Under the pieces are notes generated by a model. The model saw only the letters and a list, made by a program, of their open reading frames with translations, searched no databases and was not told where the DNA came from. Below, one piece after another: positions 83-53,833 of a stretch of DNA of 53,833 bases (positions are counted from its first letter, which is position 1; each line of letters begins with the position of its first letter). The translations under genes were made by a program, and so were the position numbers. Origin of the DNA: a virus; IMG/VR virus record IMGVR_UViG_3300045988_061461, one strand, 5' to 3'.

Positions 83-99
83 AATGATTCGCCATCCTT

Positions 100-125
100 T
101 CATAAAAGACGGTGAAATTTTCGCG
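100..125 (-). promoter_or_regulatory. CGCGAAAA-N10-TATTATGAG class promoter (P1) driving the junction-spanning ORF and the early block
   Basis: Minus strand reads CGCGAAAATTTCACCGTCTTTTATGA, followed by the SD and the ATG at 82. Confidence 0.55.
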
Positions 126-126
126 A

Positions 127-349: not shown

Positions 350-355
350 TTTCTC

Positions 356-381
356 TCATAATAGTAACTGTAATTTTCGCG
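356..381 (-). promoter_or_regulatory. CGCGAAAA-N10-TATTATGAG class promoter (P2)
   Basis: Minus strand reads CGCGAAAATTACAGTTACTATTATGA. Part of a 37-nt exact repeat (348-384 equals 482-518). Confidence 0.55.
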
Positions 382-384
382 AGG

Positions 385-483: not shown

Positions 484-489
484 TTTCTC

Positions 490-515
490 TCATAATAGTA
501 ACTGTAATTTTCGCG
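490..515 (-). promoter_or_regulatory. CGCGAAAA-N10-TATTATGAG class promoter (P3)
   Basis: Identical to P2. Lies directly 3' of the sigma-factor stop codon. Confidence 0.55.
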
Positions 516-524
516 AGGTAGCTA

Positions 525-1259: not shown

Positions 1260-1274
1260 TTTAACATCCTCCTT

Positions 1275-1300
1275 TCATATTAGAGAATGTTTTCGACGCG
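1275..1300 (-). promoter_or_regulatory. variant CGCG...TAATATGA promoter (P4) upstream of the 66-aa ORF and the sigma gene
   Basis: Minus strand reads CGCGTCGAAAACATTCTCTAATATGA, with the same spacing as the consensus. Confidence 0.45.
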
Positions 1301-1302
1301 AA

Positions 1303-4593: not shown

Positions 4594-4645
4594 AACACCT
4601 CAAAAGATTAAAAGGATCAGGAAATGAATCCCAATCCTTTTTCAA

Positions 4646-4771
4646 TCAGCATAGATTTAATAATAACCAAAATAGTACAATGCATCCAACCATACAAATA
4701 CCGTCTTTAATCAGATCAGTGATTAATTTAGTCTTCTCAACGGATGGATCTTGAATAGTCTTTTTAGCCAT
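4646..4771 (-). CDS. 41-aa membrane peptide with its own promoter, not in the track
   Basis: MAKKTIQDPSVEKTKLITDLIKDGICMVGCIVLFWLLLNLC. SD GAAGGAGG follows promoter P5. Confidence 0.5.
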   Translation of the reverse strand: MAKKTIQDPSVEKTKLITDLIKDGICMVGCIVLFWLLLNLC

Positions 4772-4794
4772 ATTATGAAACCTCCTTCATGATC

Positions 4795-4820
4795 TCATAA
4801 TACAAGATGTTTTTTTCGCG
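4795..4820 (-). promoter_or_regulatory. CGCGAAAA-N10-TATTATGAG class promoter (P5)
   Basis: Minus strand reads CGCGAAAAAAACATCTTGTATTATGA. Confidence 0.6.
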
Positions 4821-4914
4821 ATAAAACCCGGGGAGTGATTTACATCATACAGCAGGATACCTCCAATCATGAGTTATAGTTGCTTCAATTTTGCTTCTCC
4901 CCGGATTATAGGGC

Positions 4915-4971
4915 GTTCAGAGCAGGAATCGAACCTGCAAATATTAAGCGTTGCCATTTCGCCATCTGAAC
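4915..4971 (-). ncRNA. tRNA-like element 1: acceptor stem, D-arm and T-arm, but no anticodon arm (57 nt)
   Basis: Minus strand GTTCAGA-TG-GCG(AAATGGCAA)CGC-TTAATATTT-GCAGG(TTCGATT)CCTGC-TCTGAAC. Perfect 7-bp acceptor and canonical T-loop. Confidence 0.4.
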
Positions 4972-5231
4972 AAATGACGATCCTTAATATTCCGTAATTT
5001 CTTTTCTGCCATGCGTCTCTTGGTTGGATTTATGTTTCATATCCCTAAATTATTTACGCAAATATAAAGGATCGTTGACTAATAGTTTTCAATCGGCTCG
5101 CCTATCGATTTGGACCAGATATATTTTTTAAAATGTTTATATGATTTTTTGCTTCTATCTAATATGATGTAATGTATCCGCTTCGATTAGGGTCATGGCG
5201 CAAATGTCAACTATTAAATCCGAATAGAAGA

Positions 5232-5280
5232 AGGGTCTCTAGGACTCGAACCTCGTAAGTACACCAAGCAGTAAGACCCC
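5232..5280 (-). ncRNA. tRNA-like element 2: acceptor stem, mini D-arm and T-arm, but no anticodon arm (49 nt)
   Basis: Minus strand GGGGTCT-TAC(TGCTTGGT)GTA-CTTA-CGAGG(TTCGAGT)CCTAG-AGACCCT. One G.A mismatch in the T stem and G.U at 1:72. Confidence 0.35.
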
Positions 5281-5304
5281 ATAAGAGGGGACAAAGCCCC
5301 TCAA
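5279..5304 (-). terminator. hairpin after the 108-aa ORF
   Basis: Minus strand GAGGGG-CUUUGU-CCCCUC then UUAU (weak U tract). Confidence 0.45.
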
Positions 5305-5307
5305 ATA

Positions 5308-13576: not shown

Positions 13577-13615
13577 TTTAATAACTCCTTTGTATTTTAG
13601 TTTGAGGTGTATCCC

Positions 13616-13641
13616 TCATATAATAAACTGTTTTTTTCGCG
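13616..13641 (-). promoter_or_regulatory. CGCGAAAA-N10-TTATATGAG class promoter (P6)
   Basis: Minus strand reads CGCGAAAAAAACAGTTTATTATATGA. Confidence 0.6.
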
Positions 13642-13646
13642 AGGTC

Positions 13647-14765: not shown

Positions 14766-14783
14766 AGAACCTCCTTTATGTTC

Positions 14784-14809
14784 TCATAATACAAGCTGAA
14801 AAATTCGCG
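14784..14809 (-). promoter_or_regulatory. CGCGAA-N-TATTATGAG class promoter (P7)
   Basis: Minus strand reads CGCGAATTTTTCAGCTTGTATTATGA. Confidence 0.6.
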
Positions 14810-14812
14810 AAC

Positions 14813-15728: not shown

Positions 15729-15749
15729 GATAGAACCTCCTTTATGTTC

Positions 15750-15775
15750 TCATAATATAAGCTGAAAATTTCGCG
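15750..15775 (-). promoter_or_regulatory. CGCGAAA-N-TATTATGAG class promoter (P8)
   Basis: Minus strand reads CGCGAAATTTTCAGCTTATATTATGA. Confidence 0.6.
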
Positions 15776-15777
15776 AA

Positions 15778-15976: not shown

Positions 15977-15999
15977 ATAATGTTTCCTCCTTTATTATT

Positions 16000-16025
16000 T
16001 CATATAGGAGAATGTTTTTTTCGCG
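16000..16025 (-). promoter_or_regulatory. CGCGAAAA-N10-CTATATGA class promoter (P9)
   Basis: Minus strand reads CGCGAAAAAAACATTCTCCTATATGA. Confidence 0.6.
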
Positions 16026-16027
16026 AA

Positions 16028-16289: not shown

Positions 16290-16311
16290 AACAAAATCCT
16301 CCTTTATGATC

Positions 16312-16336
16312 TCATATAGGAGAATGTTTTTTCGCG
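16312..16336 (-). promoter_or_regulatory. CGCGAAAA-N9-CTATATGAG class promoter (P10)
   Basis: Minus strand reads CGCGAAAAAACATTCTCCTATATGA. Confidence 0.55.
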
Positions 16337-16341
16337 AATAT

Positions 16342-16716: not shown

Positions 16717-16742
16717 ACTAATTCTCCTTTCAGTATAGTATT

Positions 16743-16768
16743 CCTTAATAGACTATGTTTTTTTCGCG
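16743..16768 (-). promoter_or_regulatory. CGCGAAAA-N10-TATTAAGG variant promoter (P11)
   Basis: Minus strand reads CGCGAAAAAAACATAGTCTATTAAGG. Confidence 0.5.
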
Positions 16769-16773
16769 ACATT

Positions 16774-17015: not shown

Positions 17016-17037
17016 TATAGAATCCTCCCTTATGTTC

Positions 17038-17063
17038 TCATATAGGAGAATGTTTTTTTCGCG
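17038..17063 (-). promoter_or_regulatory. CGCGAAAA-N10-CTATATGAG class promoter (P12)
   Basis: Minus strand reads CGCGAAAAAAACATTCTCCTATATGA, identical to P9. Confidence 0.6.
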
Positions 17064-17064
17064 T

Positions 17065-32220: not shown

Positions 32221-33915
32221 TTATGCCTGAGCCATTTCAATGGCAATGGCACTGTAAGGCTTATTCAGAGAACCAGAGCAACGAGTCTCGATCAGATACT
32301 TCTGCTGGTTGTAATCGATATCGAAATCGTCGAACATGTTCACTTCGCCACCCTTATCGGCGCCAAAGGTATAGTCTTTCATGTTGACGATAATAGCAAC
32401 CAGAGTACCACCAAGCTTACCAGTGAGATTCTCCATCACGGGAACAGTTACGATACGAGATACACGCAGTTTCCGAGCCAGCTTCTCTTCGGATTCATAG
32501 AGGTCACGACCAGTAGTATCCGTCATGAGCAGCATGTTAGTCAGCATGTCTTCAGTAGTGAACATGATGGGGCTGCCGGAACCCTTATAGTCCTTACGAG
32601 CCTTAATCGCGGCACGAATGACCAGCTTAGCCTTATCATCGTCAGTAGCATTAGCGCTATAAGTAACCTTGGTCTTGATAGTGTACAGATCCTCATCGTT
32701 GTAGATAGGACGAATGCACTGAGTGTTAATATGATCGTCATCAGAGGTGCTACGACCATCGCCAACCAGAGCCGCACGAGCAATTTCTTCGTCCAGCATC
32801 ATGCGCATCTCGGTCTTCAACATTGCGGCAACATTGAAATCGGTAATATCAAGCATGTCGTCCCGATCCATCTTCTGCTTCTTATAGATGCTCGTAGGAC
32901 TGGTCGTACGCTTCAAAAGAGTGAAGACTTCTTCCTTCTTCATGTTGCCCTTAATATAACCCTTAGCGCGAGCTTCATCTTCGGTAATGTTTGCATAGAT
33001 GGACTTAATGCGGGAGAACGCAGTGTGAGTAGCACCATTCATGACAACGCTCACCCAGTCCATATTCCGAGAAATAAAATCAATGTTGTTAGAAGTGGTG
33101 CGAGCATCGGGGAAGAGATATTCCACGTTCTCGATACCATGAGCCAGAGAGCTCTCCTTCAGGGAGCCATACTTCTTGATGTCGTTAAAAACGGCCACAA
33201 CATCACTATGCTGGATCACATCTTCCTGCTGCTGTTCATTGTTATTGTCAAATACATTGTGCTTCACTACGGTTCCCCCCTCGTCATTTTTAGATTCATT
33301 TTGATTTTTTCCTTCTTCGAGCGCTTTTTTAACAAGAGCCCAGAGAACTTTCTGCTGCTCCTCGGTCATATCATCAATAACATCCCCAACAGTACGCTCT
33401 TTCTTTTCTTCAGACATATCGGCCTTTTCCTCCATACTTTCTTTTTTATCTGCATGCTCAAGTTCTATCTCGATCGGCATACCAGTATAAATTTGTCCTT
33501 CAAATTCAGCATCATCAGCATGGGCCATAACATCATCGATGTAGGCTCCAGGATTAGCTCCAGCAAGGACCAGACTAACTTCTCTAATATTACCGTGAAT
33601 AACATTAGATCCGTTCTGACGAAGCTGATTGGCCCAAATAGACAAATATTCAACATCGCCATGTTTTACAAGAGACTTCGCGGTCTGACCATTCTCAGTA
33701 TCGTTAAATTTGCCATAAATACGAACACCTTCGCCCATATTTTTGAGAATGCCATGACCAAGAACATCGTTTACAGAATTATGCTGATGGTTCCATACGA
33801 TGGGAACTACAGCACCATCGTTTTCCTTGAAAGCATCATGCATAATGACTCGACCATCGCTACACTTAAGATTTGCTCGTGTAGCCCAGCCGGCGAAATC
33901 ATATTCCTTAGCCAT
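32221..33915 (-). CDS. fused HK97-type prohead protease, acidic scaffold-like linker and HK97-fold major capsid protein
   Basis: N-terminus FAGWA..VPIVWNHQH..EVSLVLAGANPGA (S78-like protease). Linker EKADMSEEKKER...EEQQK. C-terminal roughly 330 aa is capsid-like. Confidence 0.75.
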   Translation of the reverse strand: MAKEYDFAGWATRANLKCSDGRVIMHDAFKENDGAVVPIVWNHQHNSVNDVLGHGILKNMGEGVRIYGKFNDTENGQTAKSLVKHGDVEYLSIWANQLRQNGSNVIHGNIREVSLVLAGANPGAYIDDVMAHADDAEFEGQIYTGMPIEIELEHADKKESMEEKADMSEEKKERTVGDVIDDMTEEQQKVLWALVKKALEEGKNQNESKNDEGGTVVKHNVFDNNNEQQQEDVIQHSDVVAVFNDIKKYGSLKESSLAHGIENVEYLFPDARTTSNNIDFISRNMDWVSVVMNGATHTAFSRIKSIYANITEDEARAKGYIKGNMKKEEVFTLLKRTTSPTSIYKKQKMDRDDMLDITDFNVAAMLKTEMRMMLDEEIARAALVGDGRSTSDDDHINTQCIRPIYNDEDLYTIKTKVTYSANATDDDKAKLVIRAAIKARKDYKGSGSPIMFTTEDMLTNMLLMTDTTGRDLYESEEKLARKLRVSRIVTVPVMENLTGKLGGTLVAIIVNMKDYTFGADKGGEVNMFDDFDIDYNQQKYLIETRCSGSLNKPYSAIAIEMAQA

Positions 33916-35185: not shown

Positions 35186-36115
35186 TTAGTTCCATTCGAC
35201 CTCGTAGAGCCAATCTTTAAGTATTTTTGCATAATCGTCTGTTCCCGGAAGACCTTCAGATTTCGCAACTAATCTAAAGAATTCTGATTTTTCGCTTTCA
35301 GATAGATCATGAAAGCCTTTTCCTTGTGTTCGATTCATAAAATTTTTCCATATACTCTTTCCAAACTGTCCGCTTCTTGGATCATAGCCACCTTCATTTT
35401 GAAAAAAGTAATAATAATGATATACCTTACCCAAGGTATCGACGATTTGTCGTGTCTTTGGGTCGGCGTTATCCCAATATCTATTCTGTCCCTCCTTTTC
35501 AAGACTATAGTAAATTTTGTCTCTCATCGCTTGCGTGTCAGGATCATATTTTCCATGATCTTCCTTTTCGTATTCTTTCATAAATTCATCAACTATTGCT
35601 CGCTGATTTGCTTTACTATAGAAATTGATTAATTCTTTTGCTGTTTTTTTAAAACTGGGAATCGAATCTTTAAAGATCTGAAGTTTTTCTGGATCATATA
35701 TCGAATCATTGTACCATTCTAAAGCTTTGTAATCATTCAACATTTTGCGCGTTTCCAAATCGTCCGGAAGTTGGAGTTTGGAAAGTATTATTTTATCAGC
35801 TTCTTTTGCATACTTGTCGTAGATCTTCATCGATTTTTCGAGTTTTACAATATCGCTACCGCTTCCGTCTATAATTTCATATGCATTGTTTCTTTTCAAT
35901 TCCTCTTTTCTTTTCTTTCGAAGACGATCAAGATCTTTTCCAGCAGCTTTTTTAACGTCAGAATAAAAAGTGCTTCGATCACGTTTGTATTTATCTTGAG
36001 TACCATACCCATAATGTATACGTCCAGCAGGAGTTAAAGACCCGTCTTCATTCTGCCATCGACGTACATGCCACTTTTGACCTCTAACTCCATAATGATA
36101 AAGTTCATTCGTCAT
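35186..36115 (-). CDS. protein with an N-terminal MTNELYHYG..DGSLTPAGR motif (paralogous N-terminus with 37886..38587)
   Basis: The track ORF starts at GTG 36127; the ATG at 36115 gives MTNELYHYGVRGQKWHVRRWQNEDGSLTPAGRIHYG. Confidence 0.6.
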   Translation of the reverse strand: MTNELYHYGVRGQKWHVRRWQNEDGSLTPAGRIHYGYGTQDKYKRDRSTFYSDVKKAAGKDLDRLRKKRKEELKRNNAYEIIDGSGSDIVKLEKSMKIYDKYAKEADKIILSKLQLPDDLETRKMLNDYKALEWYNDSIYDPEKLQIFKDSIPSFKKTAKELINFYSKANQRAIVDEFMKEYEKEDHGKYDPDTQAMRDKIYYSLEKEGQNRYWDNADPKTRQIVDTLGKVYHYYYFFQNEGGYDPRSGQFGKSIWKNFMNRTQGKGFHDLSESEKSEFFRLVAKSEGLPGTDDYAKILKDWLYEVEWN

Positions 36116-36127
36116 GTCATCACCCAC

Positions 36128-37885: not shown

Positions 37886-38587
37886 TTATTTCTTCTTTTT
37901 CTTTTTAGCAACAACTGTGGGACCATTTGAAACTTTTGTCTCAGGTTGTTTCTTTTCTTTAGAGCTCATATATTCAGGGATATTCGCTTGAATCCATCGA
38001 TTTTTAGCGATCTCTGTCTTAATACGTTCTTCTTCAGATTGGTTCTTCAAACGATCCATTTTAGAAAATGCTTTTTGCAATTTTTCAGAAACTTTATTAG
38101 CCCCATCAGTAGCAGCTTTCTTTTGTTGTTCAGTCTTGAGACCCAGTTTAGTCTTAGCATAATCCATAGTTTTGTCGACAAGTAGTTCGCCAAGTTTCTG
38201 AGCACCGTAAGTTCCAAGTTTATTGATTAACTCATTTCGACTCTTTTCGAAAAATTTTCTAGTTGCGCTTTTGTCTTCTTGAGATAACTTTGAAATAGCC
38301 TCTTTGTACTGTGTCTCAAGTCGATAACGATTCAAAAAATCGTTAATTTCTTGATCACTCATTTCGCTAACAGGTTTATAAGTTTTTTTCTCTTCTTTTG
38401 AATTTCGAGACGTTGACGTCTTCTTAGAAGTTTTCTTTCTAAAAATTCCCCATCTACTTTTATCTCTAGCTGGTCCTACTCCATACCGTTCTCGACCAGC
38501 AGGAGTTAGAGATCCGTCTAAATTCTGAAAACGTCTGATACCGTGCTTCTGTCCATCTATACCATGATGGTAAAGTTCGTTAGTCAT
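37886..38587 (-). CDS. basic protein with an N-terminal MTNELYHHG..DGSLTPAGR motif
   Basis: AAAGGAGGAAA lies before the ATG at 38587. C-terminal poly-Lys. Confidence 0.6.
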   Translation of the reverse strand: MTNELYHHGIDGQKHGIRRFQNLDGSLTPAGRERYGVGPARDKSRWGIFRKKTSKKTSTSRNSKEEKKTYKPVSEMSDQEINDFLNRYRLETQYKEAISKLSQEDKSATRKFFEKSRNELINKLGTYGAQKLGELLVDKTMDYAKTKLGLKTEQQKKAATDGANKVSEKLQKAFSKMDRLKNQSEEERIKTEIAKNRWIQANIPEYMSSKEKKQPETKVSNGPTVVAKKKKKK

Positions 38588-38660
38588 TTTGAATTTTCCT
38601 CCTTTCCTCTCGGAGTATTTATTCAATGGACTTCGCGCTCTTTTCTAATTATTCTAAAAC

Positions 38661-43842: not shown

Positions 43843-43962
43843 CCAGACTGAGTAGACTTTAGGGGTCTTTTCGAAAGGATAGGACGGCTTGTTTACTGAA
43901 AGGAGAACTTTGGAAGAGAACAAAGGAGAATTTCAAAGACCCCTAAAGTCTACTCAGTCTGG
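43843..43962. repeat. 28-bp perfect inverted repeat with a 64-nt loop, directly upstream of the endolysin SD
   Basis: 43843-43870 ccagactgagtagactttaggggtcttt is the exact reverse complement of 43935-43962. Confidence 0.9.
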
Positions 43963-44190
43963 GGAATATCAAACAACTCTCCAAAAATCCCTCTGCGGGG
44001 TTTTTTCGAAGAGGCCGGCGACGACTAGGGGGTGGGTTATCCGCGACCCCCTCCCTACCCTCCTTTTATATTGGTATTGGTGGGTGTGGAGAGTTCATTC
44101 AAACAATTACAATTAATTTCTAAGAACAAACACAAAGTCTTTTCATTTAAATGTTTTTCTTTCCTGATGAAATTCATTGAAAGAATTGCT

Positions 44191-44529
44191 TTAATCAACA
44201 AGCTTTGACAATTCTTTCTCAACTACGATCTCTTCATTCGGGTTCAAAGGAAGAGAAGTTTCATCGTCAAGATCTTTAGTAACCTTCAAATAAATGTTTT
44301 GAAAGTCATACTTAATAATTTCGTCAATTGCTTCTTCAATTGCTTCTTGGTATTCAATGTCAGTAAATGAATTTGAAGTCTTCACTATTCGACCTAGAAA
44401 GGCAGAAGAATGGTAACCTTTTAATTCATCATACATATACCAGTGATAGAAATCCTCAAAAGGATCATAAGGATTATCCTTCGTAGTAATCATCGATTGA
44501 CGCATCAATTTCACTCTCCTTTCTTTCAT
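44191..44529 (-). CDS. hypothetical protein (start probably ATG 44505, MRQSMITT...)
   Basis: AAAGGAGAG lies before the ATG at 44505. Overlaps the 3' end of the RNAP gene. Confidence 0.55.
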   Translation of the reverse strand: MKERRVKLMRQSMITTKDNPYDPFEDFYHWYMYDELKGYHSSAFLGRIVKTSNSFTDIEYQEAIEEAIDEIIKYDFQNIYLKVTKDLDDETSLPLNPNEEIVVEKELSKLVD

Positions 44530-47335
44530 AATCTCGATCTTTCAAATACTTTCCAACAGTTGCCGAAGAAACGCCCAACGCTTTTGCGATTTCGATTAAA
44601 GTATAGTTATTTGAAGCGGCCATAGTTTTCATCTTATTAATCTGCCAAGGACGTAGTTGTTTTCGTTCTTTCGGCATGGATAGATCTTTTAATCGATCGG
44701 TGTCAGTATATTTCAGAATGCTATTGAGCTTACTGGCTGATATAGCTCCTTTCTGGATAGCTTCCCACTCCCTATCGCTTATGGTTATGGGAACACGTTT
44801 AGCACCGACATGCAGTCTCGCTTTAGTCAACTCCCTCTGACGTATCTTACGGAGTTGCTTTTTGTCATCTGCCAGATCCGGATTGTCGTTTATGAGTGAC
44901 TGAACTTTTGCGGCTGTTGTTACTTGCGCCATTCGTTCTCTAGGGTCATTCAACTTAGCCTTTGCCAGCTGGGCCATTAATGAATCGTATTCCTTCTGGT
45001 ATGTTGACTTGGCAACGGGATCATATTTCATGTCCTTGGTATGGACTATTTCAAGCCGGGCCTGGTTCGCTAGGGATTTCATCTTATTAGCATAGTCGGC
45101 ATAAGCTTGTTCTTGAGGGGTATTGTATTCCGAGATAAGTGTTCTTGCATCAGAGGTCTCCAGCATCTTATTACTACGCTGAGTTCTCTTCTTAAACTTT
45201 CCTGTTGGTATGGTTTTCTTTCCTGTTACAGGATCTTTCTTCTTTACCTCGTAATACAGATCATCAGCCGTCTTCCAAATAAGTTCTCCTGTTTCAGGAT
45301 TAATAGTGGGCGAACCTTGACGCTTGTCGACTGTTTGCTGAGATTTAGCTCTCGACAGCAACGTTGCCGCAGCACCGTAACTACCATCAGGTTTCTTCTG
45401 CCACTTTCGTTTCAATCCATCAATGTCGTTCTCATATTCAGATCTCTTGTAATCGAGTTTGTGTTTTTCTGCATCAATTACAACCATACTATGTTTAACA
45501 GCTCTTGCGATTTCATCTTCACCAGCACCTTCAATAGTCATGTCAATAATCAGGTTTGTAATTACGCCCATTTCTTTTTGAGTTCCTGCTTTCGTCATTA
45601 CTTTCATACCTGGACGAGCAGCATATTCAACGTGCGGGTCGAAACCTTTAAGCTGTTCTAGAGGTTTGCTGTAAGAAATGTTAATACCATTCTTTCCAGT
45701 TGGAATGACCAAAGCTGTATCGCCGTCGTAATCGGCGCCAGATAGCTGTTGAGCAACCTTTGAATTAATACCAACTCCATCTGGAGAATCAGCACCAATA
45801 AGTTTTGCCCCTTCCCTATTCTTATTATTCACCTTAAGTTTTGGTATCTCGAAAATTCCTCCATGAGGAAACCGAACGAGACAAACTTCTTCTCCATCTT
45901 CATAGCCAGGAGCATATATTTCGTTGTCCTTTAATGATGGAACAGGAAGTAACACATGGTATTTTTGTCTGGGAAGGGCGGCTGCCTGAAGATGATAGGA
46001 AGCAGAGTCACAGTCTTTAGCAAAAGAATCTAATAGATACTTTCTCAAAGTCGGATTACTTACAGACATAATATCGTCGAACTCTGATTGTTTATCGGCT
46101 TTTGCCAAATTAAGCTGTCTGTTTATAAGTTTAATGTTCTGCTTTCCAAGAAATTGTGAAGGAAGCTTCGCTGAATAATCAGCCCAATCTCCTTCTTCTC
46201 TCATCTTATTAATCGGAGAAAGAACTTTTTCGCCCTTTTCATTTTCATAATAAGACTGTCCGTTTGGTTTAATGTATGCTCCAAATGGATTGTCCGGATC
46301 GTCATTCTTTATTGGTTTGAGAACAGTGTTGTCTTTTGGCCCAAGCATAGGTGTTCCTTTAGATTTGTTGGTATTAAACCGTATGTCTACGCCATCAGGA
46401 AGATCATCCGAATAGACCGCCATTCCCTTTAAGTAATGCGTTCCGTCAACAAGTATTCGAACCTGTGCATAGTTAGCGTTTCCGAGAGAGAGATCTGGAA
46501 CTCCTCGACGAAGTTCAATAACACCGTCACGATCAACACCGCCGTCTTCAGCATATTTGATCTGAATGCGCTTCGAATCTACACTACTCGGATACTTATA
46601 TGCATGAAAGGTTTCACCATCATCATTAGTCGCATAATCAGTAATCGAATGAATCTTGCTGTAATCATAGCTGTCTTTATAAGGAGTTCCTTTAGGACAA
46701 ATGACCTGAAGATTCGTTTTCTGATCTGGATTGGTTGCCTGATTTACAGAAGAATTGTAGACCGGATATCCTTCTCTTTCAAGAATATAAAGTGCCTGCT
46801 GAAGTTTCTCAGGACTTAAATTTCCAAGTTCTCGTTCAACACCAGTACCAACCATAATAATACCCTTTTCTTCAATCTGCTTTCTTATGAAGTCAGCGGT
46901 ATTATGAGCGGACATCATTCTACGTTCAGCGTCTTCATCTAAAAGACCTCGAACGGTTGACTCGTTCTTTAATCCAAGTCTCTTCGCAATCTCTCCATTA
47001 GAAAGACCTTCAGCTTTAAGTTTCTTAACATCAGCAACTGTTCGCATTCTTTCTTCTGCTTGTTCGACTGCAAGAATCTTTCTGTAAACACCAGAATTCA
47101 ACCCAAGAGATGCGGCGATAGCATTCTCTCCAGTAAGAACTTTTCCGTTCTCAACGAAAGTAATGTTTTCTGCTCGCAACTGTTTGACTCGTGCAAGAAA
47201 ATCGCCAGAATGCTGATAAGGATTTTCTCCTGAGCCCCAAGGATATCTTCCTGAATGTCGCTTAGTTCCATAATGAACGACATCGTCATCTACGAAAATA
47301 TCATAGTAAGAGACGAAATCCTCTTCATAGTTCAT
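44474..47335 (-). CDS. single-chain two-barrel (DPBB) RNA polymerase, YonO-like, with N- and C-terminal HTH domains
   Basis: Beta-like GTHYLKGMAVYSDDLPDGVDIRFNTN (aa 298-322). Beta-prime-like LVRFPHGGIFEIP...GADYDGDTALV (aa 486-543). HTHs LSNGEIAKRLGLKNESTVRGLL and YTLIEIAKALGVSSATVGKYL. Confidence 0.7.
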   Translation of the reverse strand: MNYEEDFVSYYDIFVDDDVVHYGTKRHSGRYPWGSGENPYQHSGDFLARVKQLRAENITFVENGKVLTGENAIAASLGLNSGVYRKILAVEQAEERMRTVADVKKLKAEGLSNGEIAKRLGLKNESTVRGLLDEDAERRMMSAHNTADFIRKQIEEKGIIMVGTGVERELGNLSPEKLQQALYILEREGYPVYNSSVNQATNPDQKTNLQVICPKGTPYKDSYDYSKIHSITDYATNDDGETFHAYKYPSSVDSKRIQIKYAEDGGVDRDGVIELRRGVPDLSLGNANYAQVRILVDGTHYLKGMAVYSDDLPDGVDIRFNTNKSKGTPMLGPKDNTVLKPIKNDDPDNPFGAYIKPNGQSYYENEKGEKVLSPINKMREEGDWADYSAKLPSQFLGKQNIKLINRQLNLAKADKQSEFDDIMSVSNPTLRKYLLDSFAKDCDSASYHLQAAALPRQKYHVLLPVPSLKDNEIYAPGYEDGEEVCLVRFPHGGIFEIPKLKVNNKNREGAKLIGADSPDGVGINSKVAQQLSGADYDGDTALVIPTGKNGINISYSKPLEQLKGFDPHVEYAARPGMKVMTKAGTQKEMGVITNLIIDMTIEGAGEDEIARAVKHSMVVIDAEKHKLDYKRSEYENDIDGLKRKWQKKPDGSYGAAATLLSRAKSQQTVDKRQGSPTINPETGELIWKTADDLYYEVKKKDPVTGKKTIPTGKFKKRTQRSNKMLETSDARTLISEYNTPQEQAYADYANKMKSLANQARLEIVHTKDMKYDPVAKSTYQKEYDSLMAQLAKAKLNDPRERMAQVTTAAKVQSLINDNPDLADDKKQLRKIRQRELTKARLHVGAKRVPITISDREWEAIQKGAISASKLNSILKYTDTDRLKDLSMPKERKQLRPWQINKMKTMAASNNYTLIEIAKALGVSSATVGKYLKDRDYERKESEIDASIDDYYEG

Positions 47336-47338
47336 AGC

Positions 47339-47896
47339 TTATTCCTCCTGTTTCTTTACTTTGTCAACGATCTTGTCGCTTAAAACAATTCTATTTATAA
47401 TATCGATAATTATTTCCGGTTCTGGATTAGCAATTAGTATATCATCATTTTGATAGATTCTCAATTCGTGTTTGATCGCCGTCGGTTTAAAATCATATTC
47501 CAAACAGAAAAGAGCATCATAAATCATAAGCTGCTCTATATGAGCTGGAATACTTCCTGTCTTTAGATCGTGGATTCTTAGAATCCCATCGTTAAAAGAA
47601 ATAGTATCGGCGGTTCCAAAACAATTGTCCGAATAATATAATATTTGTTCCGGCGTCATTCGAAAGCCAATAGCATCGTTAACATACATATTAAGAGTCT
47701 TTCTAATTCTCGGAAGCTTCTGTTTCAAACGAATACATGTTGCTGCAAATTCGTGAATCTCGGTTCCTCTTTGAGCAGCCAAGAAATTCTTGTAAGCCTC
47801 AGCAACTTTCTCATCAGAATAATTGATCCAATGATACTTACTTGCTCCCAAGAATGCATGCATTCCTTCAAGATTCGAATGCCTGTTGAATTTCAT
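47339..47896 (-). CDS. PD-(D/E)XK family nuclease
   Basis: AAGGAGGA lies before the ATG at 47896. Motifs GTEIHEF, ADTISF and RIHDLKTG. Confidence 0.6.
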   Translation of the reverse strand: MKFNRHSNLEGMHAFLGASKYHWINYSDEKVAEAYKNFLAAQRGTEIHEFAATCIRLKQKLPRIRKTLNMYVNDAIGFRMTPEQILYYSDNCFGTADTISFNDGILRIHDLKTGSIPAHIEQLMIYDALFCLEYDFKPTAIKHELRIYQNDDILIANPEPEIIIDIINRIVLSDKIVDKVKKQEE

Positions 47897-48158
47897 TAAG
47901 TACGTCCTCCTTGTTCTCTGGGTATATAAAAGATGCATAACTCATTTCGTTCATCGTTTTGACGTAATAGTCTTGATTCGGACGATGAGAGGCATTCTTA
48001 TTTTTCTTTCCTTCCAAGGCCGCCCATTTATTCTTATATAGAATCAAAAGATCTGGAACGCCTTGTCTTTCTGTCGGATCCAGATGAAAAACATAAGAGC
48101 CTGGAAATCGTTTTTCAATTTCTTTGATCAGGTTCGTTTTAAATTTGTTCTCCAACAT
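47868..48158 (-). CDS. VRR-NUC domain nuclease
   Basis: GVPDLLILYKNKWAALEGKK...RPNQ (D-E-K plus Q). Confidence 0.6.
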   Translation of the reverse strand: MLENKFKTNLIKEIEKRFPGSYVFHLDPTERQGVPDLLILYKNKWAALEGKKNKNASHRPNQDYYVKTMNEMSYASFIYPENKEDVLNEIQQAFES

Positions 48159-48210
48159 AATGAGACTCCTTAATAATAAAATTAATAGGAAAGGTCCTAT
48201 TCTACCCTCT

Positions 48211-48237
48211 CCTATAAAAGGGGATGTTTTTCTCGCG
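48211..48237 (-). promoter_or_regulatory. variant CGCGAGAA-N10-TTTTATAGG promoter (P13) for the nuclease-RNAP operon
   Basis: Minus strand reads CGCGAGAAAAACATCCCCTTTTATAGG. Confidence 0.4.
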
Positions 48238-48255
48238 AGGTACCCACACTCTTAC

Positions 48256-48330
48256 CAATCGTCCGTACAGTCTTATAATTCTTCACAATCGTTCGTACAG
48301 TCTTATAACTCACCGCAAGCATCCGTACAT
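48256..48330. repeat. 30-bp-period direct repeats CAATCGT(C/T)CGTACAGTCTTATAA x2, plus a partial third copy
   Basis: 48256-48278 and 48286-48308 differ at 1 position. CATCCGTACAT at 48320. Confidence 0.8.
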
Positions 48331-48371
48331 TTGCAGCTCCCGCAAATCGACAAAAATTCACTGAAAACCCG

Positions 48372-48642
48372 TTTGCCCAGTTTGCCCAGTTTTTTTCTCC
48401 AGTTATATATAAATATATATATATTTTTTCGCGTAATAAGAAAAAAAAGTGGGCAAAGTGGGCAGAGGCCTAATTTTTCCCTAAATATCTAGGTTTTTTC
48501 ATGCCCACTTTTGTTTTTAAAACTGGGCAAATGCCCACTTTTTCTGGGCAAAAATTCAAAAATTTTCAAAAATTCTATCTAAAATTTTAAAAATTTCTAA
48601 AAATTCAAAAACAAAAGTGGGCAGAGAAATAAAAAGTGGGCA
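48372..48642. repeat. iteron cluster: 10 copies of the core TGGGCA (mostly AAGTGGGCA) in both orientations, flanking AT-rich phased A-tracts; candidate replication origin
   Basis: Copies at about 48372, 48381 (rc), 48447, 48456, 48501 (rc), 48521, 48531 (rc), 48543, 48615 and 48634. A/T tract 48550-48612. TA run 48405-48428. Confidence 0.6.
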
Positions 48643-53683: not shown

Positions 53684-53833
53684 AATTTCAAATTTTGGAT
53701 CAATGATTCCATCTTTTGCTTCTACTACATAATAGTATAATACTTCGCCATTATTAACTAAAACCAATTTGCGTTTTATGATTCTTCCACCACATTCTGC
53801 TAATTTGGTTTCAAAATAACTAGCTACATCTTT
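53672..53833 (-). CDS. 3' part of the junction-spanning 62-aa hypothetical protein
   Basis: Full product MMKYYAYVAKDVASYFETKLAECGGRIIKRKLVLVNNGEVLYYYVVEAKDGIIDPKFEIEGA when the circle is closed. Confidence 0.5.
   Translation of the reverse strand, partial: KDVASYFETKLAECGGRIIKRKLVLVNNGEVLYYYVVEAKDGIIDPKFEIEGA
53779..53833. repeat. terminal 55-nt exact direct repeat (copy 2)
   Basis: Identical to 1-55. Confidence 0.9.

Follow-up and report, generated by a model that had tools for sequence, protein, structure and literature searches.

The 53,833-nt viral DNA of IMG/VR record IMGVR_UViG_3300045988_061461 (this whole stretch is called the window here) carries at positions 44474-47335 a gene for a 953-amino-acid (aa) protein that is very probably a one-chain RNA polymerase related to the cellular RNA polymerases. 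We propose, with a probability of roughly 0.5, that it is a competent single-chain two-barrel RNA polymerase that has its own promoter of ∼30 bp and serves the late genes by read-through. The two-barrel polymerase reading itself has already been published as a prediction (PMC2919709; bioRxiv 10.1101/842583). What is new here is a family-wide promoter-like motif, the placement of cos, a structured late leader, and a closed circular genome; the motif, the position of cos, and the leader are not mentioned in either of those publications.

Sequence invariants and predicted fold of the catalytic core

The open reading frame (ORF) runs from ATG to stop over 953 codons, as an earlier note made from the DNA letters had described, and lies on the minus strand, which that note had left unstated. 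The gene and the parts of its core are as follows.

44474-47335, minus strand: single-chain two-barrel RNA polymerase gene, predicted (ORF; PHROG 4291; AlphaFold2 model and Foldseek matches to RDR2)
46364-46567, minus strand: beta-subunit-like double-psi beta-barrel, aa 257-324, with D270-G271, R293, K303-G304, and FNTNK (AlphaFold2 strands 257-321; invariants)
45698-45964, minus strand: beta-prime-like double-psi beta-barrel, aa 458-546, with R488-x-P490-H491 (AlphaFold2 strands; invariants; hhalign match to YonO; Pfam RdRP)
45719-45733, minus strand: predicted metal-binding D535-Y-D537-G-D539 (invariants)
45461-45592, minus strand: two long conserved helices, aa 582-625, MG..NLI.DMT...AV.HSM..ID..KH (AlphaFold2 helices 582-602 and 606-625; conservation)

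Conservation was evaluated in an alignment of 150 representatives sharing no more than 50% identity among themselves and 42 to 56% identity with the window protein. At least 97% conservation was found in the beta-like segment for D270-G271, R293, K303-G304, P313, G315, D317, and N321 and in the beta-prime-like segment for R488, P490, H491, D519, S532-G-A-D535, D537-G-D539, and P545. The peptides that the earlier note had quoted were found where it had put them, the beta-like one, GTHYLKGMAVYSDDLPDGVDIRFNTN, at aa 298-323 and the beta-prime-like ones at aa 486-498 (LVRFPHGGIFEIP) and aa 533-543 (GADYDGDTALV); its helix-turn-helix (HTH) cores were recovered likewise, at aa 111-122 and 911-931. 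Given this conservation, the resemblance is not fortuitous. The conserved residues correspond to the universal two-barrel signature of Ruprich-Robert and Thuriaux (PMC2919709), in which the beta-like barrel carries an invariant acidic residue and two lysines (Rpb2 D837, K979, and K987). D270 and K303 are invariant in the family and fit the motif context (NFEDS-like RDGVIE and GxxxKG, respectively), and K324 and K340 are candidates for the second lysine.

An AlphaFold2 model built with 53 family sequences (mean predicted local distance difference test [pLDDT], 76; predicted template modeling [TM] score, 0.67) contains two beta-rich blocks, aa 257-321 and aa 458-546, followed by the two long helices, whose position would fit a bridge-helix-like element. 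When this model was compared with the PDB by Foldseek, the top three matches were all RDR2, with a probability of 1.0 (7eu1_M, E = 1.2e-5; 7roz, 6.9e-5; 7w88, 4.5e-4); they extend over ∼540 aligned columns with a TM-score of only ∼0.25. Low TM-scores would be expected for proteins that share a core and differ in their decorations. The next matches were bacterial RNA polymerase beta-prime chains, which were not significant (E = 0.1 to 0.3). Thus, the structural comparison proposed in the earlier note yielded a significant match to RDR2 but not to the bacterial beta-prime subunit, and QDE-1 was absent among the 50 matches listed. Against the viral models of BFVD, the top matches were other phage proteins predicted as "RdRP" (RNA-dependent RNA polymerase).

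Sequence profiles gave weaker signals. The Pfam RdRP family PF05183 matched aa 526-628 below its threshold (E = 0.0067; 15.6 bits versus a cut-off of 23.8), searches of PDB sequences with the single sequence or a profile returned nothing significant (a jumbo-phage beta-prime subunit reached E = 0.12 over the DxDGD region), and NCBIfam returned only HTH and sigma-family matches, all subthreshold. Since the sequence invariants, the two blocks of the model, and the Foldseek ranking support the same fold, we assign the protein to the two-barrel class, with signature residues for metal and substrate binding that appear intact. Together with PHROG 4291 and the weak Pfam RdRP match, these data bear out what the earlier note had proposed, namely, a single chain with a beta-like and then a beta-prime-like barrel and a D-x-DGD site.

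A large family annotated mostly as HTH proteins

The protein matched phrog_4291, "RNA-dependent RNA polymerase," over its full length (E = 0; 1,138 bits; aa 16-934 against positions 9-908 of 909). A tblastn search of the GenBank phages retrieved 250 records with full-length homologues at 37 to 49% identity, 249 of which reached at least 80% coverage. The hosts are mainly Arthrobacter (95 records), Gordonia (55), Streptomyces (54), and Lactococcus (13), and minor groups comprise Curtobacterium, Microbacterium, and Rhodococcus phages, the Faecalibacterium phage FP_oengus, and human gut contigs. The best match among GenBank phages was 49% identical, and a megablast search of the polymerase gene against them gave no match; a 99% identical protein occurs in metagenome assemblies only. 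When clustered at 90% identity, the PHROG 4291 family still comprises 8,000 clusters or more, and at 50% identity at least 3,725.

Most homologues are labeled "helix-turn-helix DNA-binding domain protein," others "hypothetical protein," "putative transcription factor D5," or "LuxR C-terminal-related transcriptional regulator," and RefSeq and FP_oengus records carry an RNA polymerase label. The polymerase core has been systematically overlooked by the domain-based annotation of the homologues. In the literature, a YonO-like character was predicted in 2010 for the "phage 1706" group, one of the five such groups of Ruprich-Robert and Thuriaux (PMC2919709). Koert et al. (2021) described the same family, with an HTH at both ends, a DxDGD loop, RdRP-like character, and an HHpred match to Pfam RdRP at 95.7%, and regarded the gene as a signature of an actinophage/Lactococcus/Faecalibacterium supercluster (bioRxiv 10.1101/842583). 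Lactococcus phage 1706 ORF75, the "putative RNA polymerase" of FP_oengus, and the actinophage HTH protein belong to this family and share with the window protein the HTH-core-HTH layout and the operon context, whereas the window phage, unlike those phages, has no counterpart in GenBank phage records. For one family member, prophage Oengus, presence has been reported in as many as 40% of the human gut viromes sampled (PMC5883640).

HTH modules at both ends

The core is flanked by helical modules and preceded by a conserved peptide.

47228-47275, minus strand: invariant N-terminal peptide, aa 21-36, HYGTKRHSGRYPWGSG, predicted to be disordered (conservation; pLDDT)
46865-47200, minus strand: predicted helical DNA-binding module of the N terminus, aa 46-157, whose HTH core spans aa 111-131 (subthreshold Pfam matches; AlphaFold2 helices with pLDDT of ∼80)
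44540-44776, minus strand: predicted C-terminal helical DNA-binding module, aa 854-932, with a three-helix unit EW.AIQ.GAIS and an HTH at aa 911-931 (subthreshold Pfam matches; AlphaFold2 helices 854-932)

Pfam matched the N-terminal module with HTH_23 (E = 6.6e-5 at aa 98-131), HTH_38, and GerE and the C-terminal module with Sigma70_r4_2 (E = 1.4e-4 at aa 913-932), HTH_3, and HTH_7, all below the cut-offs; a second HTH is possible at aa 69-87. An HTH at either end, as the earlier note had put forward, is thus supported by the subthreshold matches and the modeled helices. The same note had likened the HTH at aa 110-132 to sigma region 4, and this did not hold: the N-terminal HTH scores best as a homeodomain or transposase type, all below cut-off, and the Sigma70_r4_2 match (21.9 versus a cut-off of 25.7; Sigma70_r4, 12.6 versus 24.1) falls on the C-terminal HTH. 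Such sigma-like scores are unspecific, as many unrelated HTH families score alike, and we consider the HTH matches to be real but generic.

In the N-terminal peptide, G23, S28, G29, R30, G34, S35, and G36 are at least 97% conserved, and aa 1-44 have a pLDDT below 50 in the model. Elsewhere in the window, two proteins encoded on either side of the large terminase gene (35186-36127 and 37886-38626, minus strand) share the N terminus "ELYHYG.xGQKWGxRRxQNxDGSLTPAGR." These N termini correspond to PHROG 32444 with a weak DUF7211 match, and the related contig MT835495 contains three such genes (locus L004, 7206, 7749, and 11151). We considered HYGTKRHSGRYPWGSG as a capsid-targeting signal common to the polymerase and these proteins and rejected it, as a hidden Markov model of the polymerase N terminus scored them at E = 5.5 and 39.

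A strand-specific promoter-like motif

Repeat analysis revealed on the coding strand a 30-nt motif, TCGCGAAAAAAACA-N6-TATTATGAGA, i.e., TCGCGAAAAAAACA-N6-TAT(T/A)ATGAGA. A position weight matrix (PWM) found 12 copies in the window, and a copy with a 1-nt-shorter spacer brings the number to 13; the matrix found 0 copies on the other strand of the window and in shuffled sequences.

48208-48238, minus strand: copy before the operon of the VRR-NUC, Cas4, polymerase, and small-ORF genes, TCGCGAGAAAAACATCCCCTTTTATAGGAGA (PWM score, 35.4)
17034-17064, minus strand: copy (PWM)
16739-16769, minus strand: copy (PWM)
16308-16337, minus strand: copy with a spacer 1 nt shorter (spacer variant)
15996-16026, minus strand: copy (PWM)
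15746-15776, minus strand: copy (PWM)
14780-14810, minus strand: copy (PWM)
13612-13642, minus strand: copy upstream of the replication gene block (PWM)
4791-4821, minus strand: copy upstream of the helicase gene (PWM)
1271-1301, minus strand: copy (PWM)
486-516, minus strand: copy (PWM)
352-382, minus strand: copy (PWM)
96-126, minus strand: copy (PWM)

Every copy lies directly upstream of a ribosome-binding site and a start codon. The motif stands before early and middle genes, namely, small genes located after the tail genes, the genes of the replication block, that of the helicase, and those that lead into nucleotide metabolism, and before the polymerase operon; no full copy was found in the late block (43821-17386). 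In the window, it lacks a −35 box at sigma-70 spacing as well as a TGn extension, and its best-conserved copy reads TTTTAT, not TATAAT, with no A at the position equivalent to −11. A scan for sigma-70 promoters and terminators around the polymerase gene showed no enrichment of promoter-like sites.

The motif recurs in relatives. Across 80 related IMG/VR loci (1.19 Mb), a loose pattern matched 96 times on the polymerase strand and 0 times on the opposite strand, with 1.2 matches expected, and 60 of the 80 loci had at least one match, typically ∼940 nt upstream of the polymerase gene. The copies before polymerase operons form a promoter subclass of their own, CATgCCCTTTTATGAAGAGAG, which is kept across relatives. 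The Arthrobacter phage Circum, whose host belongs to a different phylum, has 8 copies of TCGCGTAAATTACA-N5-TATAATGAGA in the 50-kb locus examined, and its polymerase operon is preceded by a variant copy with CGCT for CGCG at identical spacing. In Lactococcus phage 1706, which has the most divergent polymerase, we found 11 coding-strand copies of the variant CACAnGTTTTACA-N5-CTATAGTAGAAAG, in which the downstream half is kept (TTTACA-N5-TATAGT-AGAA) and the upstream half is different. When IMG/VR was scanned with an exact pattern, at least 118 stretches proved to carry the motif, and 105 of these 118 encode homologues of window phage proteins. A blastn search of GenBank phages with the 35-nt consensus, which is too insensitive for this purpose, matched only FP_oengus, MT835495, and, by chance, Listeria phages.

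Because this conservation is long, strand specific, and lineage tracking, we infer that the motif is a promoter read by the polymerase through its HTH modules. The promoters of T7 and SP6 have conserved initial transcribed sequences, which the purine-rich stretch after the TATA-like box of the motif resembles. A conserved motif that co-occurs with the polymerase is also the reasoning applied to the P23-45 promoters (bioRxiv 10.1101/2022.12.01.518664).

The cos element and a structured leader before the late genes

Two elements lie between the polymerase operon and the late genes.

44012-44051, minus strand: cos element GGGGGTC...ACCCCC...TCGCCGGCCT, physical genome end (unique match; Circum right end; contig ends)
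43843-43962, minus strand: structured leader with a perfect 28-bp stem and a loop containing TTCTCCTTTCAG (inverted repeat; fold z score, −6.4; covariation)

The cos element was recognized as a unique match, GGGGGTCGCGGATAACCCACCCCCTAGTCGTCGCCGGCCT in the window, to the right end of Circum, ...GGGGGTCTCGCAAAAGGTACCCCCCCTCTGCATCGCCGGCCT, which is annotated with a 9-base 3′ overhang (PMC5513430). Among 19 related IMG/VR contigs that stop 288 to 543 nt past the end of the polymerase gene, about a dozen stop in or just after this element. In this assignment, cos separates the polymerase operon from the late genes, so that the two would be adjacent only after circularization or in concatemers. The polymerase gene had been placed immediately upstream of the late block in the earlier note; this is correct for the circular map, but in virion DNA cos lies between them and they sit at opposite ends. 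Directly after cos, at 43985-44011, there is a conserved element composed of an A-run, CCCCG..GGG, and a T-run (GAAAAAACCCCGCAGAGGGATTTTT; AAAAATTCCCCGGGGGTATTTTT in relatives), for which we see three possible roles: terminase or cos-binding site, terminator, or late promoter.

The leader starts ∼50 nt after cos, and the arms of its stem occupy 43843-43870 and 43935-43962. Its loop motif, UUCUCCUUUC, is near-invariant in relatives as TTCTCCTTTCRG and is similar to the 3′ end of 16S rRNA (anti-Shine-Dalgarno). For the helix in 16 relatives, 27 pairs were predicted, 25 of them with compensatory changes; G-U pairs are many and confined to the late-sense strand. An equivalent hairpin was seen just after a cos-like element in loci L021, L025, L026, L042, L055, and others. 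No Rfam family was matched anywhere in the window, the leader included. The covarying helix with its sense-strand G-U pairs speaks for an RNA leader whose transcription begins at cos or ahead of it, and this leader could be an element of antitermination, stability, or translational control. The late block behind it (43821-17386) extends over 26 kb almost without intergenic gaps.

Genome organization and the polymerase operon

The ends of the window are identical over 55 bases (1-55 and 53779-53833), so it represents a complete phage genome of 53,778 bp, assembled as a closed circle. Its G+C content is 39%, and a greedy tiling of ORFs placed essentially all coding capacity on the minus strand. 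Along the direction of transcription, PHROG annotation gave small genes, a replication block (a 1,299-aa primase-polymerase, PHROG 4210 with primase matches, and a helicase), nucleotide metabolism (FolD-like and MazG genes and a gene that sequence and synteny mark as ThyX-like), the polymerase operon, and the late genes. The latter encode an endolysin, a holin, an HNH endonuclease, a terminase, a portal, a fused protease-capsid protein, and tail proteins, including a 2,419-aa ORF at the position of the Circum tape measure gene. The 564-aa protein encoded at 32221-33915 on the minus strand matched profiles of both the head maturation protease and the major head protein, and a protease-capsid fusion has been noted for Arthrobacter cluster AM and AU phages (PMC5513430).

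Besides the polymerase gene, the operon contains three genes.

47868-48158, minus strand: VRR-NUC-like endonuclease, operon gene 1 (PHROG 93, E = 4.5e-14; VRR-Nuc label in relatives)
47339-47938, minus strand: Cas4/RecB-like exonuclease, operon gene 2 (PHROG 3953, E = 2e-77; synteny)
44191-44505, minus strand: small ORF of 104 aa, PHROG 4303, after the polymerase gene (E = 1.3e-30; synteny)

The small ORF occupies the same position in all relatives examined (FP_oengus, Circum, RosaAsantewaa, Conley, ReqiPoco6, Count, P118, Egad, and 1706) and may encode an accessory factor. The block of nuclease, exonuclease, polymerase, and small ORF is kept in nearly every annotated relative and is the last block before the right genome end in Actinobacteria phages. 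The window and nine annotated relatives share the order VRR-NUC, Cas4, polymerase, small ORF, and cos.

Upstream of the operon, the region 48446-48641 holds all six exact window copies of GCCCACTTT, in both orientations, where 0.33 were expected, and adjoins an A/T-rich stretch; its appearance is that of an iteron-containing replication origin. The corresponding region of Circum, upstream of the VRR-NUC gene (L003, 3690-3930), carries these repeats too (TGCCCACTTT/AAGTGGCCA). Between this origin-like region and the motif copy of the operon, two tandem copies of ∼27 nt, GAGTTATAAGACTGTACGAACGATTG and GAATTATAAGACTGTACGGACGATTGG, occupy 48255-48345 on the minus strand. A 714-nt gene-free gap at 4594-5307, minus strand, contains two GGTTCGA(G/T)TCC strings typical of tRNA T-arms. 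ARAGORN predicted no tRNA despite these strings, which may be tRNA remnants or part of another structured RNA.

A proposed transcription program and its alternatives

In the program that we propose, the catalytic core (aa ∼250-650) would copy the phage double-stranded DNA, as YonO does, and the flanking HTH modules would find the polymerase's own promoters, the 30-nt motif copies. DNA is a likelier template than RNA because the gene belongs to a double-stranded DNA phage and the core is flanked by HTH modules. The motif would serve 13 early or middle transcription units, and, as these include the polymerase operon, the enzyme would sustain its own synthesis by positive feedback. The polymerase operon is the last transcription unit before cos. 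Once the cos ends are joined, transcription from its promoter would cross cos and the leader into the motif-free 26-kb late block; this ordering fits, since a covarying leader with G-U pairs on the late-sense strand begins so soon after cos. Either weak host transcription or enzyme carried in the virion would have to supply the first polymerase molecules. If instead the host RNA polymerase reads the motif, the phage enzyme would be an early or middle product and would most plausibly start late transcription after cos, as YonO does.

Several points weigh against this program. In the literature searched, we found no experimental study of the PHROG 4291 family, neither biochemistry nor transcript data. 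The closest solved structures are RNA-dependent enzymes, and the sequence gives no template preference. YonO, the closest characterized analogue, transcribes the late operon only, from a single promoter. All Circum copies of the motif contain a perfect TATAAT-like box with a G at −14, which the host sigma-A could use, at least in Actinobacteria, and the motif could also be the site of another conserved phage DNA-binding protein. Dependence on its own promoter requires a source of the first polymerase molecules, and FP_oengus is a temperate prophage, for which host-driven early transcription is the norm (PMC5883640).

In a YonO-style scheme, the host RNA polymerase would read the 13 motif promoters early, and the phage polymerase would start at one promoter between cos and the endolysin gene, near an A/T-flanked CCCCGGGGG-like element or the leader, and produce the whole 26-kb late block as a single operon. 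On the circular map, the last large gene ahead of the late block is that of the polymerase, a position held by yonO in SPbeta, the nearly gapless late block is devoid of the motif, a conserved sequence and the covarying leader stand exactly at its start, and the TATAAT-like box might be used by host sigma-A. We hold this scheme to be a serious rival but less likely than not, as the motif in the window genome lacks both a −35 element at sigma-70 spacing and TGn, the sigma-70-type scan found no enrichment, and no candidate for the late promoter could be defined. Moreover, host sigma factors alone could hardly account for the maintenance of a 30-nt noncoding element in phages of both Firmicutes and Actinobacteria.

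A polymerase that is made late, packaged, and injected and that then transcribes those early genes that bear the motif, independently of the host RNA polymerase, as happens in N4, crAss-like phages, and P23-45, appears unlikely to us. The 1706 homologue ORF75 (EU081845) is labeled "structural protein" in GenBank, a label that is echoed in the ReqiPoco6 record; if it rests on virion mass spectrometry, the polymerase may be packaged. However, 1706 orf62 and orf71, which lie in a nonstructural region, share this label, and contamination may explain it. On the circular map, the operon adjoins the late block, and it has the promoter subclass CATgCCCTTTTATGAAGAGAG, a strongly conserved early-promoter motif is typical of injected-polymerase phages (bioRxiv 10.1101/2022.12.01.518664), and the invariant disordered peptide at the N terminus might serve as a signal for packaging or ejection. 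Yet this peptide has no detectable relation to the DUF7211-like N termini beside the terminase, and FP_oengus is temperate (PMC5883640).

We regard it as very improbable that the protein is not a transcriptase at all but an HTH DNA-binding regulator that retains its barrel core as a relic or a two-barrel enzyme that serves priming or RNA-templated synthesis at the origin-like region nearby. Most GenBank records name an HTH DNA-binding domain protein and one NCBI record a LuxR-type regulator, but these names stem from automatic HTH domain matches only, and signature residues conserved at 97% or more over thousands of homologues argue against a relic. A role at the origin would agree with the iteron-rich region just upstream of the operon, with the nucleases that are the operon partners, and with closest solved folds that are RNA-dependent polymerases; the genome, however, already has a primase-polymerase (PHROG 4210).

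Extended to the whole family, our proposal would describe self-sufficient, sigma-independent polymerases, perhaps carried in the virion, that read a ∼30-bp promoter through their HTH modules, carry out most or all transcription of these siphoviruses without host RNA polymerase, and have coevolved with their promoters (CGCG type in gut and actinobacterial phages and CACA type in Lactococcus phage 1706). We offer this extension only tentatively. With its 250 sequenced phages and no fewer than 3,725 clusters at 50% identity, the family is enormous, and most of it is annotated as HTH or LuxR-type proteins. If its members are active and have built-in promoter recognition, they would be the smallest known promoter-specific relatives of cellular RNA polymerases, a useful model for two-barrel initiation that dispenses with sigma or TFB-like factors, and a candidate tool for orthogonal transcription. 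A concrete template for testing the predicted polymerase is at hand in the conserved motif, and together with the placement of cos and the leader, this motif turns a "putative RNA polymerase" into a directly testable model.

Comparison with YonO and other two-barrel polymerases

YonO of SPbeta (839 aa) is likewise a minimal single-chain two-barrel protein, of ∼100 kDa, whose gene lies just upstream of phage late genes. It has been proven experimentally to be a processive DNA-dependent RNA polymerase, its promoter determinants are unknown, and no HTH modules are mentioned for it (PMC5467207), whereas the window protein has them. A tblastn search with YonO retrieved 40 records (Bacillus, Clostridium, Enterocloster, and others), none of which is among the 250 records of the window protein. 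When an 11-member alignment of the family was compared by hhalign with YonO alone, no meaningful alignment was obtained; with a 6-member YonO alignment, there was one 82-column match (probability, 39.8%; E = 3e-4). This match pairs window aa 464-549 with YonO aa 469-547, with R-x-P-H and D-x-D-G-D in register, and the residue numbers are nearly the same (R492, P494, and D535-539 in YonO; R488, P490, and D535-539 in the window protein). Thus, a profile comparison of the kind called for in the earlier note detects YonO at 40% probability over 82 columns when its relatives are aligned and finds nothing with YonO alone. The note's term "YonO-like" is apt for the catalytic core, as this match indicates, but membership in the YonO family is contradicted by the disjoint tblastn sets, and we place the protein by sequence in another family, the "phage 1706" group.

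The eukaryotic RdRPs (RDR2 of Arabidopsis and maize, QDE-1 of Neurospora; PF05183) share the D-Y-DGD spelling of the metal loop, and RDR2 is the closest solved fold. The window protein differs from them in being encoded by a double-stranded DNA phage and in its DNA-binding HTH flanks. Among phage enzymes, gp66 of phi14:2, which is a crAss-like phage, and gp64 and gp96 of the Thermus phage P23-45 are single-chain two-barrel, sigma-independent polymerases that, among relatives, co-occur with strongly conserved phage-specific promoter motifs (bioRxiv 10.1101/2022.12.01.518664). PDB sequence searches and Foldseek detected no match between them and the window protein, and, unlike it, they lack terminal HTH modules. 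For gp66 and gp96, association with the virion has been proven; for the PHROG 4291 family, it is only hinted at.

In T7, T3, and SP6, one polypeptide reads a conserved promoter of ∼23 to 30 bp, and promoter variants track polymerase lineages. These T7-type single-subunit polymerases have an unrelated right-hand fold and are functional analogues only. Their promoters and the motif of the PHROG 4291 family, for which promoter use would follow from its pattern of conservation, have in common an A/T-rich melting box and a purine-rich start.

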